A DNA stretch of 39,748 nt, taken from contig JBEKJT010000001.1 in assembly GCA_050011075.1 (NCBI GenBank), positions 1-39,748 of the forward strand. Reading direction: 5' to 3'. This document shows positions 1 through 6,280 of the stretch, one piece after another (within the stretch, counting starts at the first letter, position 1; the number at the start of each line of letters is the position of its first letter). The translations under genes and the position numbers were made by a program. The notes below the pieces were generated by a model. That model was not told where the DNA came from, ran no database searches, and worked only from the letters and a program-made list of their open reading frames with translations. This DNA is from Thermoplasmata archaeon (GTDB lineage Archaea > Thermoplasmatota > Thermoplasmata > Lutacidiplasmatales > UBA184).

Positions 1-356
1 AGAGTCTCGAGGGACTCGAGACAAAGCGCACCGATGCATGCCACACAGCAGAACAGCCCCGGGCGGAACATAGTCTCTAGGGACGTAGGCACGTTGAGGA
101 GCCCAAACACGGTTTCGCCGGCGGGGACGCGGGTCCCGCACCGACATCGTACAGAGACGGCAGTGCGGGTCACGAAAATGGATGCTGGCGCCATCGAAGC
201 CTGCGCGACTCGTGCCTGGCCTCAGGTCCAGGGAGACAATTTCACCGTCGATTTCCGTTTAGGGGGTTGGGTTTTTGGAGACGGCCGTCGGCTCTCGGTT
301 ACTGACGAACCACAGACCCAATGACTGGCTCCTGCCGCCGCGTTGCTCGCCAGTCG

Positions 357-1487
357 CTAGGTTTGAGGAATCTTTCCACTCCGCACGAAAAGCATCGGTT
401 CCCGGGGACGCTCAGTTGGAATCCTCGAGCTCCGACGAATCGGTCGCTGCGGGACCACTTGGACCTTTCTCACACGGTCTTCCGCCGCACGGCAGTACTT
501 CTCGCTCTGGTCAAAATGGACGAAGTGGCGATTGTTCGCCTTCGCAACGGCAGCAACCGTGCCGGTTCCTCCGAATGGATCCATGATTGTGTTCCCGCGA
601 TAGGTAAAGAAGAGGACTAACCTTCGGATGAGTTCCTCGGGAAACGTCGCGGGGTGGTTGACCAATCTCCGGGTGTCCGGAGGTATCTCCCATACTCCAT
701 CCGACCAGTCCCGAAACTCCTCCGGAGAGATGTCAATCGTGCTGGGGTCGCCCTCGAGTTTCCAACTTTCCTTGTGGAAGACCTCAATGTACTCCCACGA
801 TGGGATGACGTGTGGGTGGCGAGGACTCTTCCAGCTGCCCCAAGCGGTGCGGGGCGCGCTCATATTCTGTTTTGCCCACAGAATCTCGGCCCGATGAGTG
901 AACTTCGCCGCGCGGATATCCCGTGACAAGTCATGGTGGAGGGGCACGAACTCCGCGATTCCAGTCGGGGCGACTTCGAGAGCAAGTCTCCCGCCGCGCT
1001 TCAGTACGCGGAAGCATTCCTTCCAGACCTCGCTCAACCAGAGGCGGTACTCCGAGTACTGGCGTCTGTCGTCGTAATCCGAGTACTCGATTCCCACGTT
1101 GTACGGCGGCGACGTAATCACCATGTGGACCGAATTGCTCGGCACCTTTCGTATCTCCTCGAGAACGTCGCCGCAAGTGATTCGATCGAGCGACCCGAAC
1201 TTTGTGGAAGTGAGAGTTCGTGACTCGGGCTCGGTAACTATTGGAGACGCTGCAGGGCGCAACACAATAGAGTCATCGTCGATATGCGAGGTGAGTCGCT
1301 TTCCGACATACCAAGAGAGCTCCTCCACCTGGCCCTTGGGCAGGATGGCATAGAAGGAGCCATAGTCCGTCCGATCGCTGTGAGATCCAGTCTTCAGTCG
1401 GGTCTTCCAACTGAGGGTCACCGGCTGCTCGCCGGCGACATAGGGCTTCTGGGGCTCCTTCTCCATCGCGCGCTCCGAGAAGGTCAC
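357..1487 (-). CDS. DNA methyltransferase, beta-class N4-cytosine/N6-adenine type (PF01555-like), with an extra ~110-aa N-terminal AbrB/SpoVT-like domain
   Basis: Catalytic motif IV 'VITSPPYNVG' lies upstream of the AdoMet motif I 'IMDPFGGTGTVAAVA' near the C-terminus, which is the beta-class order. The start is GTG 1487 or ATG 1466 (MEKEPQ). The N-terminal 'FYAILPKGQVEELSWYVGKRLTSHIDDDSIVLRP' resembles a swapped-hairpin AbrB domain. Confidence 0.85.
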   Translation of the reverse strand: MTFSERAMEKEPQKPYVAGEQPVTLSWKTRLKTGSHSDRTDYGSFYAILPKGQVEELSWYVGKRLTSHIDDDSIVLRPAASPIVTEPESRTLTSTKFGSLDRITCGDVLEEIRKVPSNSVHMVITSPPYNVGIEYSDYDDRRQYSEYRLWLSEVWKECFRVLKRGGRLALEVAPTGIAEFVPLHHDLSRDIRAAKFTHRAEILWAKQNMSAPRTAWGSWKSPRHPHVIPSWEYIEVFHKESWKLEGDPSTIDISPEEFRDWSDGVWEIPPDTRRLVNHPATFPEELIRRLVLFFTYRGNTIMDPFGGTGTVAAVAKANNRHFVHFDQSEKYCRAAEDRVRKVQVVPQRPIRRSSRIPTERPREPMLFVRSGKIPQT

Positions 1488-1557
1488 CGGCTATAGCTCT
1501 TGAGGTACCCCAGGCTGAAACGGTTAGAGGTGCCTGCGCTTCACCGAGGGCGGCACC

Positions 1558-2484
1558 TCAAAACTTGCCGGTCGCAAGCGCATCGTCAAGAGCGTCAAGC
1601 AACACGTGGAGGCACCGAAGGCAGAGACCCTCGACGTCTATGCGGAAATACGTGCGGATGCGCCCCTTCTCTGCCTCTAGGCTCTGAGCCGAATAGAGAT
1701 CGAGCCGGCGTGCGCTTGGTTTCCACTTCCTCAGGGACTTGAGCGAGCGGAGCATCAACGCGAGGGTAATCCTGTCCTTCTCACTCAATTCGTGGCTGTG
1801 GAACAGTGGAGCGCGATAGGCGATCTCTCGCTCGGCGAGTTCAACCACCCGGCCGTCTAAGGTTAGGTCTACGCCGGGGGTCTTCCTGACTACGTCTCCA
1901 AGGACCTCCAATACCGTGCGCAGAAGGTTTCCTGCCTCACTTGGATAGAGAAGAACCACGTTCAACGGAACGAGGACTCCGAACCAGATCGACCCAGGGT
2001 GCCTGTATAGAATCACGGAACCGGTGGGCAGATGGGCCTCCGGGAATCGGCGGGTCAGCTCCTGTTCAAGATTTGCCGCCTCTTCTTCTGTGACGTGCTT
2101 CTCGACTCGGGGGGAGACAAGTTCACCGAAATACCGATCACGGAGAGCCGCGGCGTCCTGCTGCAGCTCGGCAGGCCGGTCTCTGTACTTGTCGAACACG
2201 CGAATCGTTTCGCGACCGACGTTCGCCAAGCCGCGTCCCGGCTGCTTCAGCGTGAAGATGTTGCCCAGGTGCTGGGAAATCGCTCCGGGGGTTCGGCCCA
2301 GGAGGTCAGCGAGCTCGCGGACCCAAGGGGCCTCTGGACGGTAATTCTGTGTGTCGGGCGGGCACGCCGCGAGAACTAGGGTGACTTCCTCCGCGGTCCA
2401 AAGCTCGCGGTCCCTGGCGGGCGCTCCGGCCCGCGGACGCCGGGTTGCTCCCTTGGGGTTCCCTGTATCGCCGCCTTCATGCAT
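1558..2484 (-). CDS. Hypothetical protein: N-terminal module as in COG3183-type HNH restriction enzymes, followed by an unrecognised ~180-aa C-terminal domain with no HNH motif
   Basis: 308-aa ORF with an ATG start, in an operon with the methyltransferase. 'LWTAEEVTLVLAA...LLGRTPGAISQHLGNIFTLKQPGRGLANVGRETIRVFDKY' follows the W-T-x-EE / GRTPxA..KLxNF..LDP..G..GLxN pattern I know from the N-termini of HNH 'putative restriction endonucleases'. No HNH or PD-(D/E)xK motif is evident afterwards. Confidence 0.6.
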   Translation of the reverse strand: MHEGGDTGNPKGATRRPRAGAPARDRELWTAEEVTLVLAACPPDTQNYRPEAPWVRELADLLGRTPGAISQHLGNIFTLKQPGRGLANVGRETIRVFDKYRDRPAELQQDAAALRDRYFGELVSPRVEKHVTEEEAANLEQELTRRFPEAHLPTGSVILYRHPGSIWFGVLVPLNVVLLYPSEAGNLLRTVLEVLGDVVRKTPGVDLTLDGRVVELAEREIAYRAPLFHSHELSEKDRITLALMLRSLKSLRKWKPSARRLDLYSAQSLEAEKGRIRTYFRIDVEGLCLRCLHVLLDALDDALATGKF

Positions 2485-2511
2485 CCTGAATCACCTGGCT
2501 ATTTGGACGCC

Positions 2512-3105
2512 TTACCGGCCTGGGTTCTTCTCGACCGAAACCAGCGGGTGCTCCTTCTTCCAGTACTCGAGCATCATTAGTGATAAGACCCTGATTTGAA
2601 ACAGACTCGGCTCACAGCGCAGCCCCGCAGGTTGGACATCGCATCCCCCCGGCCCGGCGGCTCCTGTCGGCACGAGCGAGCCGCAATGCGCGCAGTGCAA
2701 GAACGATTGGACCGGAGCCGCCACTGAAGGCGCCGCTACGTTGACCACAACATGGCCGTAATGATCAGCCATCGGTCGAACCTGCTGCCGAGCTCGAGAG
2801 ATCGCGGAGACCCACTCCTCCACGTCCTTCACCTTGTAAATGTGGCCTTGACCAGCAGCCTCGACCCGTAAGGTCGCACGCCCAATGAGCGGCTTGTCCC
2901 TGTGCAGGTTCGAAATCAGATCAAGCCGGACGTCCAGGAATGTCACAAGCTTCTCTCCTCGAACAAGTTCGGTCACGATTCTCTGTTTCTTCCTTCCTTC
3001 GAACACGAGTCGGACCGACGTCAGGGTCAAGATGCCATTGCGGCCCGAGCCACTTTCCGTTCGCTCGGAAAGAATCGTGGCCTCGCCGGGGCCGAGCAGC
3101 GGCAC
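2512..3105 (-). CDS. PH/GRAM-like (bacterial PH-type) domain protein with a degenerate C-terminal Cys-rich segment
   Basis: 'GEATILSERTESGSGRNGILTLTSVRLVFEG...ATLRVEAAGQGHIYKVKDVEEWVSAI' has the bPH/GRAM pattern, followed by 'CAHCGS...GGC...LRC'. The track ORF starts at GTG 3150, but an in-frame GTG at 3105 lies 2 nt after the RHH stop, so I prefer it. Confidence 0.5.
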   Translation of the reverse strand: MPLLGPGEATILSERTESGSGRNGILTLTSVRLVFEGRKKQRIVTELVRGEKLVTFLDVRLDLISNLHRDKPLIGRATLRVEAAGQGHIYKVKDVEEWVSAISRARQQVRPMADHYGHVVVNVAAPSVAAPVQSFLHCAHCGSLVPTGAAGPGGCDVQPAGLRCEPSLFQIRVLSLMMLEYWKKEHPLVSVEKNPGR

Positions 3106-3107
3106 TG

Positions 3108-3263
3108 TCAGGTGCTCCGGGGTGCAAGCGGCGGGTGCTCCTTCTTCCACCGCTCAAGCTTTTCCCGCACGGCCTGTTCGATAAACGCCTGACGGTTCGA
3201 CCAGCCTTCGCTCTCGGCGACCTCGACAATCTGGTCTATGAGAACTTTCGGCAGACGGACCAT
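3108..3263 (-). CDS. CopG/Arc/MetJ-type ribbon-helix-helix DNA-binding protein (51 aa)
   Basis: 'MVRLPKVLIDQIVEVAESEGWSNRQAFIEQAVREKLE' is a classic RHH beta-strand plus two helices. I use the internal ATG at 3263 of track ORF 3108..3428. It is the first gene of the minus-strand cargo operon. Confidence 0.7.
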   Translation of the reverse strand: MVRLPKVLIDQIVEVAESEGWSNRQAFIEQAVREKLERWKKEHPPLAPRST

Positions 3264-3382
3264 AACGGGAGTCCTCTCAGTGGTCTGCTTCTTCCCGGCC
3301 ACGTATCCGAATGCCCCCCCGGGATAGAATCGTTGATATAACAAGGAATCATATGATATCAATAGAAACCTGGTGCATCTTA
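3264..3382. promoter_or_regulatory. A/T-rich divergent control region with inverted repeat TTGATAT-N16-ATATCAA (3333-3339 / 3356-3362)
   Basis: This is the most A/T-rich stretch of the window. It lies between the divergent RHH operon and the integrase operon, contains TATA-like runs (gatataa, atatgatatcaatag), and has a 7-bp inverted repeat suitable as an RHH operator. Confidence 0.35.
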
Positions 3383-3586
3383 ATGACAGCAATGACAAGG
3401 CGCAGTGCGATCTGGACTGACAGGGCAACTGCTCGCGCGTACGTAGAACTTGCGGCCGAGCTCTATAAAGGCAGGGAGATTGAGCGCGAGTCGGCCGGTG
3501 AGGCTGCCAGATTCCTGCTCAGCAAGTTCCGCGTCGAGCGCTCGTCCGTGGCAGTCTCGAGGGCGACGGCGAGGGCGTCCGCATGA
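3383..3586 (+). CDS. Small hypothetical protein (first gene of the integrase operon; start uncertain)
   Basis: ATG at 3383 (MTAMTRRSAIW...) within track ORF 3311..3586. Its stop overlaps the next start (ATGA at 3583-3586). Confidence 0.4.
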   Translation: MTAMTRRSAIWTDRATARAYVELAAELYKGREIERESAGEAARFLLSKFRVERSSVAVSRATARASA

Positions 3587-3828
3587 CGATCATCGTTCTC
3601 ACGTATCCCGGCGTCCAGGAGTGTGGCACCTGTCACGTTTCATCCAGCCGGTGGAACCGCGTGCCCGGCACGAACCTATGCAAGGGTTGCCACTCATGTC
3701 TCACCGTATTTCCCCCAGCCGTCGGTGAGCGACCCGCGGCCGGCGCGCCCTCGGTAGACGAGGCGCCGACGCGCGGGCTCAGTCCGGCCCCGACCGCCGC
3801 GGATGGGCGGCCCCACCCGGGGGACTGA
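3583..3828 (+). CDS. Small Cys-rich (zinc-ribbon-like) hypothetical protein
   Basis: 'ECGTCH...LCKGCHSC' gives CxxC plus CxxCxxC. It has an ATGA overlap upstream and a TGATG overlap downstream. Confidence 0.4.
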   Translation: MTIIVLTYPGVQECGTCHVSSSRWNRVPGTNLCKGCHSCLTVFPPAVGERPAAGAPSVDEAPTRGLSPAPTAADGRPHPGD

Positions 3829-4007
3829 TGCGAGCGGGTCCCCCGTACGGCCCGTTCGTCACCGCCTCCGATCTCCTAAATGACGAGGTCGCGTCGGTCA
3901 CGGACCCGGTCCGCCTGGTTGGTCGGATTCACCAGATCGAAAACCGCGTGCGCGAGCTTGAGGTCGAACACCGGCACCTTCTCCTCAGCCTCGCGACTCG
4001 GCTGTGA
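3828..4007 (+). CDS. 59-aa hypothetical helical protein, below the ORF-track length cutoff
   Basis: My translation is MRAGPPYGPFVTASDLLNDEVASVTDPVRLVGRIHQIENRVRELEVEHRHLLLSLATRL*. Its ATG shares the A of the preceding TGA, and its TGA overlaps the integrase GTG (GTGA at 4004-4007). Confidence 0.4.
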   Translation: MRAGPPYGPFVTASDLLNDEVASVTDPVRLVGRIHQIENRVRELEVEHRHLLLSLATRL

Positions 4008-5002
4008 CCGACTCAGCGGGGACGTCCGCGGACCGGCATCCCCTGGTCCCGAACGGTCGCTTGGAGGACTTCAGGTCGTGGCAGATCGCGCTCGACCATG
4101 CCCTCAGCACCGCGAACAAGAGCGTGAGGTACCTCCGCTTCCTCGAGAGCAAGGGTCTCGATCTCGCGCCGCCCGCGCTCTCCTACGACCGCGCCCTCGG
4201 GTTCATGGCCGAATGGCGGCAGCGCGGGGTGAAGCCCCGGACTCTAAATTCGTGGGTTCGCGAGCTCAACCTCTGGAGTCGGTTCCTGAATCTCGGTTGG
4301 AAGTTGCCGTACTTCCGCCGTCGGTCGGGGCCACCAATCCAGGTTCCCGACCGCGTCCTCGTCTCGAAACTCCTCGGCCTCGCCTACCCGTCCCCGGCGA
4401 CACAGGCTCGCAACCGCGCCATGATCGCGGTCTTCGCGGACGTCGGAATTCGCAGGAACGAACTCGTCAACCTCCAGCTCTCGGACCGCATCCAGCTCGC
4501 GTCGGGCCCGGGGCTCCGGGTCCGCTTCGGAAAGGGCGAGAACGAGCGCGACGTCCCGCTCGACCTCGAGGTCTCTGAGCTGCTAGAACGGTACGTCTCA
4601 ACCTACCGATCGCACTCCCACGCGACTCGCCTGTTTACGACCCAGGTGGGGCCACTGTCATATGGCTACGTCGGAAAGGTCGTGCAGGAAGCCGGAGCCC
4701 GTCTCGGAGCCCCATGGCTGTCATGCCACAAACTGCGTCACTTCGTCGCCGACGTCACGCTCGATGCCGGGATGCCGGTCTCCTCGGTCGCCGAGATCCT
4801 CGGACACAAGCGATGGGAGACGACCCAGCTGTACCGCCAACGCCGGCTCCAGAAAATCCGCGCTGAGGCGGACTTCCGGTCTACTGCTAAATCACGGTCC
4901 ATCTTCGGAGGGAAAATGGGGCAAATCCGACCGAGACTTGAACGGAAAGCGGGAGCCGGCGACGAATCACGCGCGGAGAGGAGTGGGAGCACGGGGATTT
5001 GA
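4004..5002 (+). CDS. Tyrosine recombinase / phage-type integrase
   Basis: Arg-I context 'VGIRRNELVNLQLSD', 'CHKLRHFVA' (H-x-x-R) and 'LGHKRWETTQLY' (catalytic Tyr), with an N-terminal SAM-like domain. The 3' end overlaps the tRNA-Trp 3' end. Confidence 0.9.
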   Translation: MTDSAGTSADRHPLVPNGRLEDFRSWQIALDHALSTANKSVRYLRFLESKGLDLAPPALSYDRALGFMAEWRQRGVKPRTLNSWVRELNLWSRFLNLGWKLPYFRRRSGPPIQVPDRVLVSKLLGLAYPSPATQARNRAMIAVFADVGIRRNELVNLQLSDRIQLASGPGLRVRFGKGENERDVPLDLEVSELLERYVSTYRSHSHATRLFTTQVGPLSYGYVGKVVQEAGARLGAPWLSCHKLRHFVADVTLDAGMPVSSVAEILGHKRWETTQLYRQRRLQKIRAEADFRSTAKSRSIFGGKMGQIRPRLERKAGAGDESRAERSGSTGI

Positions 5003-5144
5003 ACCCCGATATGCGGGTATCTCCGCGCGCTCCAGTCAATCGTCACGGGGACGCTCGGCGCCCCTCCGCAAACCCGTAATCCCAGGGTGACGAATCGTCA
5101 CCCTGACTGGAGCCCGCTGGTCTGCCAGATTAGCCTATGCTCCC
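4984..5144 (-). tRNA. tRNA-Trp (anticodon CCA) with an 88-nt intron at the canonical 37/38 position
   Basis: Hand fold of the minus strand. The acceptor stem is GGGAGCA/UGCUCCC plus A73. U8, A14, G18G19 and A21 are present. The D stem is GGCU/AGACC-type with one C:A mismatch. The anticodon stem is GCGGG/CCCGC and the spliced loop is CUCCAGA. The variable region is AUAU and the T arm is CGGGG-UUCAAAU-CCCCG. Exons are 5144-5107 and 5018-4984. CCA is not encoded. Confidence 0.8.
5019..5106 (-). ncRNA. tRNA-Trp intron with box C/D guide-RNA architecture (C 5101-5095, D' 5068-5065, C' 5046-5040, D 5025-5022)
   Basis: The intron reads UCAGG-GUGACGA-N26-CGGA-N18-GUGACGA-N14-CGGA-GAU. Both guide regions are complementary to the anticodon arm of the host tRNA. 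A tRNA-Trp intron C/D RNA is established in Haloferax and other Euryarchaeota. Confidence 0.6.
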
Positions 5145-5272
5145 TCCGATCCACCCCGGGCGCGCTCAGAGACATATCCTTTGTCGTTCGACCGAAGGGA
5201 GGCGCGGAGCGCGCCCCCGGCACGATTGGGTCCTCACAAGACTTATGAGAAAGAGTGTTTGTCTCAAATCCA

Positions 5273-6280
5273 ATGTCGTTTAACCCCCCCACGCCGCCCC
5301 CTCGCCGGACGGTGCCGCTGGCCTGGGTCGTGGTGATCGTCCTGGTCTTCGCAGGAGTAGGAGTCGCCCTGACCGCGGTCCTGACCGCGCCCTCATCGGG
5401 CTCGACTCCCGGCGCGACCACGGTGACCGACGACCTCGGCCGGACCGTAGAGGTTCCGAGCGATCCGGCCCGGGTGGCGGTCCTCAGCCCGAGCATCATG
5501 GACAGCATGTACCGACTCGGACTGCGAAGCCACGTCGTCGCGGTGGATTGCTACGCCGCGAGTTTCGGAGGACTGTCCGAGGACTACTCCGCGGACCAGG
5601 TCGCCCTCTGGAACCTCTCCTCTTCGATGTGCGTTCAGGTAGGGCCCACGTTCGTCCCCTCGATGCTGGTCGACCTCGCGCCCGACCTGGTCCTCGCGTC
5701 CACGATCGTATCGATCGCCGACGTCGAGGAGATCACGAGCCAGCTGCACGTACCGGTCGTCATGCTCCAGCCCCCGACGATGAGCGGCATTCTGGTGGAC
5801 GTTTCGTTGATCGGGGTGATCTTCGGGGTCGAGGCAGCCGCAGCTGCTCTGAACGGGCAGCTGTCGACGGAGCTCTACGCGGCCACGAACACTACCGCGA
5901 CGGCTTCGGTGTTCCCGTCCGTCCTGCTCACGTACTCGGTCGACGAGAACGGGTACTGGACCTTTGGTCCCGGAACGTTCGGCCAGTCCCTCCTCGAGCT
6001 CACCGGGGCCGTCGGTCTCGGCGCGACGGCCGGCTTCCCGTACCCTGAGCTCTCGCCCCAGCAGGTGCTCTCCGCCGACCCTACCTGGATCGTCTACGGA
6101 GTTGGCTTCGGTTTGAACGAAAGCACGTACGCCTCGGGTCCGGATTGGTCGAACATTCCCGCCGTACAGCAGGGGAACGTTTCCGGGATCGACTCGAATT
6201 GGATTACGGAGCCGGACCCGACCATGGTCCTTCAGGGGATCCCTACGCTCCTCGCGCTGTTTCACCCACCGACGCCCTGA
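5273..6280 (+). CDS. ABC transporter substrate-binding protein, iron-siderophore/cobalamin (FecB/BtuF, PF01497-like) type, N-terminally membrane anchored
   Basis: 'TVTDDLGRTVEVPSDPARVAVLSPSIMDSMYRLGL...VVAVD' is a typical cluster-A SBP N-lobe. An N-terminal TM segment follows the ATG at 5273. The track ORF starts at GTG 5255. Confidence 0.85.
   Translation: MSFNPPTPPPRRTVPLAWVVVIVLVFAGVGVALTAVLTAPSSGSTPGATTVTDDLGRTVEVPSDPARVAVLSPSIMDSMYRLGLRSHVVAVDCYAASFGGLSEDYSADQVALWNLSSSMCVQVGPTFVPSMLVDLAPDLVLASTIVSIADVEEITSQLHVPVVMLQPPTMSGILVDVSLIGVIFGVEAAAAALNGQLSTELYAATNTTATASVFPSVLLTYSVDENGYWTFGPGTFGQSLLELTGAVGLGATAGFPYPELSPQQVLSADPTWIVYGVGFGLNESTYASGPDWSNIPAVQQGNVSGIDSNWITEPDPTMVLQGIPTLLALFHPPTP

Follow-up and report, generated by a model that had tools for sequence, protein, structure and literature searches.

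The stretch analysed here, hereafter the window, is the entire 39,748-bp contig of a metagenome-assembled genome of a Thermoplasmata archaeon (locus tags ABSB97_). Near its left end lie four genes on one strand, which encode, in the direction of transcription, a 51-aa ribbon–helix–helix (RHH) protein, a 197-aa protein labelled PH-like, a 308-aa protein and a DNA methyltransferase with an SPPY motif. An earlier reading of the sequence alone had taken them for a four-gene operon on an integrated element and for a candidate undescribed restriction–modification (R-M)-like or other defence module. The calls of open reading frames (ORFs) and direct reading of the sequence bore out the four genes at their coordinates (Table 1), with intergenic gaps of 2 nt (RHH to PH-like), 27 nt (PH-like to 308-aa) and 70 nt (308-aa to methyltransferase ORF). 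Comparison with related loci showed that the conserved unit consists of two genes, that of the 308-aa protein (hereafter the partner) and that of the methyltransferase, and not of four: no other locus has the PH-like gene, and of the RHH gene only one tail remnant appears elsewhere. Thus, the idea of a module survives for a conserved mobile pair that carries no name in the libraries searched and falls for the four-gene composition.

The partner has 13 close homologues, and a search with the family profile gave 170 relatives at E ≤ 1e-3, about 38 of them at E ≤ 1e-10. Loci were fetched around members of the partner family that are 24–65% identical to the window protein. Wherever the flanks could be read, a PF01555 methyltransferase adjoins the partner gene (about 15 lineages, with identities as low as 24%: L001–L005, L008–L013, L015–L017 and the P0027 contig), the sole exception being L014, a 1.9-kb contig from the most divergent subfamily. 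The reverse search of metagenome contigs with the N-terminal domain of the methyltransferase gave eight new loci, of which seven were informative, and the partner was found in all seven. Whichever of the two genes serves as the query, they occur together in every informative locus.

The adjacent methyltransferases are orthologues, 52–81% identical to the window enzyme from residue 8 on, including the N-terminal extension, whereas the partners are 24–65% identical. The methyltransferase is always the better conserved of the two (77% versus 64% in L001, 56% versus 39% in L013, 52% versus 29% in L017), the usual pattern of modification over restriction genes. The pair has neighbours of the kind met on mobile elements and in defence islands: insertion sequence (IS) transposases, resolvases, a D5-type primase, GmrSD with a Dam-type methylase, and ThiF/BilD_N. 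Two contigs that are 99.93% identical, L022 and L023, differ at four positions, one of which is a CAG→TAG nonsense change in the partner gene with the methyltransferase left intact; the affected codon lies at 982–984 of L022 and at the same position of L023, and a second single-nucleotide difference is 11 nt away.

Some loci showed further features around the pair. At 3418–6999 of L015/L016, the methylase gene lies between two paralogues of the partner family (323 and 332 aa), with ThiF/BilD_N and UvrD-PDDEXK_1 genes close by in a defence-island context. Just upstream of the partner gene in L011 (4890–5864) and L023 (1906–2880) and in no other locus, a 324-aa ORF carries a D-Y-V-L...VVEAK motif typical of PD-(D/E)xK nucleases (HsdR_N/Mrr-like). 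Searches for the partner gave no tblastn match in the plasmid and phage collections and no relative in IMG/VR, and the methyltransferase matched among plasmids only a 33% identical Calditerrivibrio methylase, which is uninformative.

Table 1. Features of the left part of the window.
Feature	Positions	Strand	Basis or remark
Methyltransferase ORF	357–1487	minus	ORF call
Conserved spacer with methyltransferase promoter	1467–1557	minus	Spacer alignment
308-aa partner protein ORF	1558–2484	minus	ORF call
197-aa (PH-like) ORF	2512–3105	minus	GTG start
Direct repeat, copy 1	2539–2572		3' tail of the original RHH-type ORF; encodes ...WKKEHPLVSVEKNPGR*
51-aa RHH ORF	3108–3263	minus	First gene of the local operon
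Direct repeat, copy 2	3126–3159		Within the 3' end of the RHH gene as it now stands
Putative divergent A/T-rich control region	3264–3430		Inverted repeat TTGATAT (3333–3339)/ATATCAA (3356–3362), read from the sequence
XerA-like tyrosine integrase	4004–5002	plus	PF00589, 7.6e-22
tRNA-Trp	4984–5144	minus	Rfam RF00005, 42.1 bits, E 1.9e-6

The methyltransferase belongs to the beta class, as had been read from its sequence: it matches PF01555 (3.5e-40) and the PADLOC family MTase_II (2.8e-63), and motif IV (SPPY, within TSPPYN) precedes motif I (DPFGGTGT), the order of the beta class. N4-cytosine enzymes usually have motif IV in the SPPY form. The closest solved relatives in PDB are 2zie (TTHA0409) and the N4-cytosine methyltransferases 8s9n and 8s9m, and the enzyme probably makes N4-methylcytosine (m4C). 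Its best conserved segment is the target-recognition region, with 86–95% identity in close and 54–73% in distant orthologues. Translation most likely starts at ATG 1466 rather than at GTG 1487, because the orthologues align from residue 8.

An additional N-terminal domain of about 72 aa (LSWKTR...YGSFYxILPKGQVEEL...LVLRP) is kept in all methyltransferase orthologues. The proposal that it is AbrB-like is weakly supported: hhalign against a small AbrB/SpoVT/MazE reference of five sequences gave a probability of 79% over 34 columns, and no Pfam match was found for the domain even at E ≤ 10. An AbrB-like nature of the domain is plausible but unproven.

The spacer between the two genes is conserved at the DNA level. 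It measures about 91 nt in the window, counted from ATG 1466, and 85–94 nt in close relatives. About 27 nt before the start codon of the methyltransferase it carries a TATA-like box, TTAAGT, TTAAAT or, in the window, CTATAG (1491–1496), a distance that fits a leaderless archaeal transcript. The sequence-only reading had placed all four genes behind one divergent promoter; in fact the spacer gives the methyltransferase a conserved promoter of its own, and therefore the four genes are not driven by the divergent promoter alone.

Associated with the TATA-like box are two RGGTACCY palindromes, which flank it in some loci and both lie upstream of it in others. Their centre-to-centre distance is 24–25 bp in most loci, 21 bp in L013 and 10–11 bp in L017, L025 and L029. 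By pattern search, all 24 loci that contain the junction of the two genes (about 15 distinct lineages) have exactly one pair of GGTACC sites or two overlapping pairs, and none of the five loci without the junction does. The 6-bp core GGTACC is invariant across orthologous loci and its flanks vary.

The window departs from this arrangement, in that the central site alone is intact (1504–1509) and every related locus keeps at least two sites. Two degenerate sites are seen on the plus strand, GGTGCC at 1529–1534 and GGTCACC at 1482–1488 (GGCACC and GGTGACC on the gene strand), and regulation of the methyltransferase may be altered or decaying here. The spacers of L001–L012 also share a conserved CCGTTTC(A) block between sites 1 and 2, which in several loci pairs with a second arm across site 1 as an imperfect inverted repeat (GAAACNG...CNGTTTC); the block could serve as a terminator for the partner gene or as another operator.

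Since the core is invariant and no part of the enzyme is better conserved than its target-recognition region, GGTACC can be taken as the putative recognition sequence of the system. These alignments suggest that the methyltransferase targets GGTACC and that this site is sensed by the promoter; they are equally compatible with palindromes that act as operators, bound by either the HTH of the partner or the N-terminal domain of the methyltransferase.

The partner gene is preceded by a GGTGA Shine–Dalgarno-like motif 6 nt before its ATG. Its product matches no Pfam, NCBIfam, PHROG or PADLOC family, apart from a weak helix–turn–helix (HTH) signal at residues 55–73, and is an uncharacterised family without a name in the libraries and literature searched; its NCBI label is hypothetical. 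A Pfam scan of 32 family members gave HTH_38 in seven of them, and HTH matches only when ten more divergent relatives were added. Neither of the HNH families PF13391 and PF01844 matched any of the 32 members, and the hairpin at 158–171 has no conserved His. The readings of the beta elements at 126–171 as a His-Me finger, GIY-YIG or PD-(D/E)xK nuclease were rejected, the required His, Tyr and Asp-Glu-Lys positions not being conserved.

AlphaFold2 with the 32-sequence alignment gave a model with a predicted local distance difference test score (pLDDT) of 88.7 and a predicted template modelling score (pTM) of 0.84. The model consists of a five-helix HTH module (about 28–121), a ferredoxin-like beta-alpha-beta-beta-alpha(-beta) unit (126–201) and a helical domain (about 203–304) with a CxxC at 288–291. 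The C-terminal half of the protein matches no known family, and the profile hidden Markov model of the family found no match among PDB sequences. Conservation across the family is centred on the HTH signature ELADLLGR(S/T)PxA(I/V)S..(L/F)GN.

The HTH module has homologues at the N-terminus of HNH_2 endonucleases that are about 250 aa long (profile positions about 20–112), and elsewhere it precedes HNH_2, NOV_C, DUF4268, kinase and helicase domains. Against a 249-aa HNH protein of Neisseria gonorrhoeae, hhalign gave a probability of 97.5% (E 5.9e-12). This match, together with the empty library scans, agrees with the earlier suggestion that the partner keeps the noncatalytic N-terminal half of a COG3183/HNH_2-type enzyme and has no nuclease domain; its C-terminal domain would, by position, replace the nuclease. 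The Neisseria protein is encoded in the pheS–pheT interval (NZ_CP119142.1, our locus L030, 2950–4741), along with a Vsr-like ORF and a fragment of a C5-cytosine methylase, and this interval is a documented R-M locus in Neisseria (PMC7973814). The record NZ_CP119142.1 is labelled a plasmid, yet its 2.17 Mb is the size of a chromosome.

The reading that we propose is a mobile type II-like R-M pair, in which the partner is the effector with an uncharacterised domain and the methylase is autoregulated through the GGTACC sites of its promoter; we give it an even chance of being correct. The methyltransferase would be transcribed from its own promoter in the spacer, at the TATA-like box with its RGGTACCY palindromes. 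With GGTACC as the sequence presumably recognised by the system, its placement around the TATA-like box would let the methylation state, or the binding of a protein of the module, set the expression of the methyltransferase. Candidate binders of the palindromes are the AbrB-like N-terminal domain of the methyltransferase and the HTH of the partner. The partner would bind DNA through the HTH module shared with HNH restriction enzymes and, as the putative restriction (effector) subunit, would act on DNA without the methyl mark. In the window, its gene would be expressed behind the local RHH regulator, with a frameshifted zinc-ribbon passenger gene inserted between the two.

A bolder and more tentative proposal, which we hold possible, is that the C-terminal part of about 190 aa is a new effector fold for methylation-coupled defence, either a nuclease or glycosylase with a novel active site (perhaps R115, R126, E128, Y160 and S165) or a non-nucleolytic effector, and that its companion is an m4C methylase specific for GGTACC, with a promoter that responds to the mark which the enzyme itself sets.

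Several results weigh against an R-M pair. Some proteins that combine the HTH module with HNH have no methylase next to them. Avoidance of GGTACC lends it no clear support as the restriction target: the host part of the window has 8 sites where about 10–12 are expected, which is no depletion, and in the pooled flanks of the related loci the count is 0.40 of the trimer expectation, rank 6 among 64 palindromes, a shortage that is not significant under an order-4 model. Foldseek searches of the pLDDT 88.7 model against PDB and BFVD found nothing better than E 0.24, those of an earlier, shallow model (pLDDT 74) nothing better than about 0.2, and the weak matches are regulatory ferredoxin-like domains of the ACT, NikR and IlvN types, not nucleases. 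Outside the HTH, the near-invariant residues are R115, R126, E128, Y160, G164, S165, G169 and C288/C291, with only one conserved acidic residue among them, and they do not add up to a recognisable nuclease active site. Finally, conservation that is strongest in the HTH and operator-like palindromes beside the gene also fit a transcription factor.

The last point leads to the strongest alternative, which we nevertheless consider rather unlikely. According to it, the 308-aa protein would be a transcription factor that joins its HTH to a ligand-binding or oligomerisation domain of ACT/RAM-like type, in the manner of archaeal Lrp-type regulators; it would bind RGGTACCY and control an orphan methylase that protects or marks the mobile element, and there would be no restriction. 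The HTH as the best conserved part of the partner, the HTH_38 matches in seven members, the invariant palindromes flanking the TATA box of the adjacent gene, the partner without catalytic motif or nuclease fold, and the regulatory character of the weak Foldseek matches all accord with it. Orphan m4C methylases, for example GTAC-specific ones, are also known to persist in archaea (PMC10609329). The pairing, however, is obligate across deep divergence, from whichever gene it is viewed, the contexts are defence islands and mobile elements, and the methylase already has a DNA-binding-type N-terminal domain of its own. Moreover, the same HTH module is fused elsewhere mainly to nuclease effectors, and a 6-bp core that never varies although its flanks do is seen more typically in R-M targets than in operators. 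We therefore favour the R-M pair over a regulator with an orphan methylase because of the two-sided obligate pairing, the better conservation of the methyltransferase, the defence and mobile contexts, the nonsense variant and the nuclease-rich fusions of the module.

It is also conceivable, although we consider it improbable, that the two genes form a reader–writer or addiction module without a nuclease. The partner would then read the methylation of GGTACC, in the way of the N-terminal domains of modification-dependent HNH enzymes, and act non-nucleolytically, for example by blocking replication or transcription, with post-segregational killing or an epigenetic switch as the outcome. The solved HNH_2 enzymes include TagI, and enzymes of this kind are modification-dependent; some of the module-plus-HNH proteins are solitary, and the partner has no nuclease motif. 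No direct evidence points to modification sensing by the module, however, and the Neisseria homologue sits in a classical R-M locus. A new defence or abortive-infection system made up of all four genes, as their tight packing on one strand behind a divergent promoter might suggest, is largely refuted and very improbable, since the PH-like gene is missing from related loci, has a homologue among PolD, purA and PGK, is frameshifted with loss of its second CxxC and lies in a 587-nt segment bracketed by a duplicated RHH tail, and the RHH gene is not conserved.

The proposed R-M pair can be compared with several known types of system. It resembles type II R-M systems with a beta-class N4/N6 methyltransferase (PvuII, BamHI-type) in its adjacent, co-oriented genes on mobile DNA, its stable linkage and catalytic methyltransferase motifs, the better conservation of the methyltransferase, the separate promoter of the latter, the associated 6-bp palindrome and the variant in which the partner is knocked out and the methylase intact. 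Unlike these, it has a partner without a PD-(D/E)xK, HNH, GIY-YIG or PLD signature, the confidently predicted fold of which matches nothing solved. It differs from R-M systems under C-protein control in having neither an HTH C-protein nor a C-box; the gene upstream encodes an RHH protein and is represented elsewhere only by the tail remnant in L003. With the COG3183/PF13391 (HNH_2) endonucleases, for example the 249-aa protein of N. gonorrhoeae, the partner shares a homologous HTH module (about 100 aa) placed in front of the effector domain, but it has an unrelated ferredoxin-like and helical domain of about 190 aa instead of the HNH beta-beta-alpha-metal fold.

R-M systems regulated through sites or operators in the methylase promoter include the CfrBI type, with its methylation switch, and the SsoII, EcoRII and MspI types, whose methylases have an N-terminal DNA-binding domain. 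As in these, the palindromes overlap the core promoter of the methylase, and the methylase has an extra N-terminal domain of DNA-binding type. The differences are the archaeal TATA-type promoter, an extra domain that is possibly AbrB/MazE-like rather than HTH, and a binder of the sites that is only proposed. The likeness to archaeal Lrp/AsnC regulators lies in the order of an HTH and a ferredoxin-like unit and in the operator-like palindromes at a neighbouring promoter; the partner differs from them in showing no sequence match or significant structural match, in its extra helical domain of 100 aa and in its obligate pairing with a methylase on mobile elements.

Unassigned putative restriction genes beside methylases are common. 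Less ordinary here are a confident fold without a structural neighbour, the strict pairing with one methylase lineage and the invariant palindrome–TATA–palindrome promoter. If the partner is a restriction subunit, it would add a catalytic fold to the short list of those used by restriction enzymes, and it might be a new archaeal enzyme of the GGTACC type. If it is not a nuclease, the obligate pairing would point to a non-canonical coupling of methylation and effector on archaeal mobile elements. Recognised defence systems are few in archaea. Whichever holds, the invariant RGGTACCY–TATA–RGGTACCY promoter offers a clean, testable case of R-M-type gene regulation in archaea, and the partner family has about 170 detectable relatives that so far are annotated only as hypothetical.

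The PH-like gene is a passenger. Its start at GTG 3105, proposed earlier, is correct, because all ten homologues begin with MPLLGPGE. All ten also end in a CxxC-x13-CxxC zinc ribbon, and zinc-ribbon Pfam matches were obtained for 11 of the 12 members; the PH/GRAM label could not be confirmed from Pfam, where the 12 members gave no PH or GRAM match and one of them a match to Vps36 GLUE at E 0.21. Relative to all homologues, the window ORF is frameshifted in a run of six C residues (2645–2650) and has lost the second CxxC, which is still readable in another frame (MRCPTCGAAL*); with the stop restored at 2612–2614, the intact protein would have about 165 aa. In its place, the annotated 197-aa product has an unrelated tail in which the former RHH C-terminus is reused. 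Since a second variant, 99% identical and found on other contigs, has the same frameshifted tail, the frameshift is a real mutation, and a sequencing error is an unlikely cause of it. The homologue mentioned above sits among housekeeping genes, those for the PolD small subunit, purA and PGK, with no methylase nearby, and no other partner–methylase locus contains the PH-like gene.

This gene is bracketed by a direct repeat of 34 nt (82% identical, 19 nt exact, copies 587 nt apart), and in both copies WKKEHP is encoded where an ORF ends. L003 has an ORF with this tail that stops 3 nt before the partner gene. The simplest reading of these sequences is that an RHH-type ORF once ended just upstream of the partner gene and that a recombination event which duplicated the RHH 3' end inserted the zinc-ribbon gene. 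The RHH protein itself was correctly recognised as a CopG/RHH regulator: PF01402 scores 23.2 bits against a gathering cut-off of 20.5, and the NCBIfam family YlcI/YnfO_N matches at 2.8e-5. Its ATG is preceded by AGAGGA at 9 nt, and in other loci only the C-terminal remnant of L003 is seen.

The pair lies on the lower-G+C, presumably integrated element that had been read from the sequence, for which the integrase, the abutting tRNA gene and the shift in base composition are all present: G+C is 58–63% over positions 1–4000 and 65–72% in the remainder of the window. The integrase also matches NCBIfam recomb_XerA_Arch (1e-27, under the equivalog cut-off). Its ORF overlaps the 3' end of the tRNA-Trp gene by 19 nt, and this gene is the probable integration target of the element. 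The element runs past the left contig end, so that its far side, where the second of two att direct repeats would be expected, lies outside the contig; the side with the integrase and the tRNA gene lies within the window. No further conserved gene was found in 1–356 or 3264–4003 by tblastx against all loci.

The tRNA gene is assigned to Trp because its anticodon reads CCA. It was called by Rfam alone and missed by ARAGORN, because an intron of about 88 nt interrupts it at the canonical 37/38 position. This intron includes a perfect 10-bp hairpin (CAGGGTGACG/CGTCACCCTG) and a second GTGACGATT. The first host gene beyond the tRNA gene (5255–6280, plus strand) resembles a PGF-CTERM-anchored substrate-binding protein of an ABC transporter (NCBIfam TIGR04281, 3.6e-31, under the equivalog cut-off).

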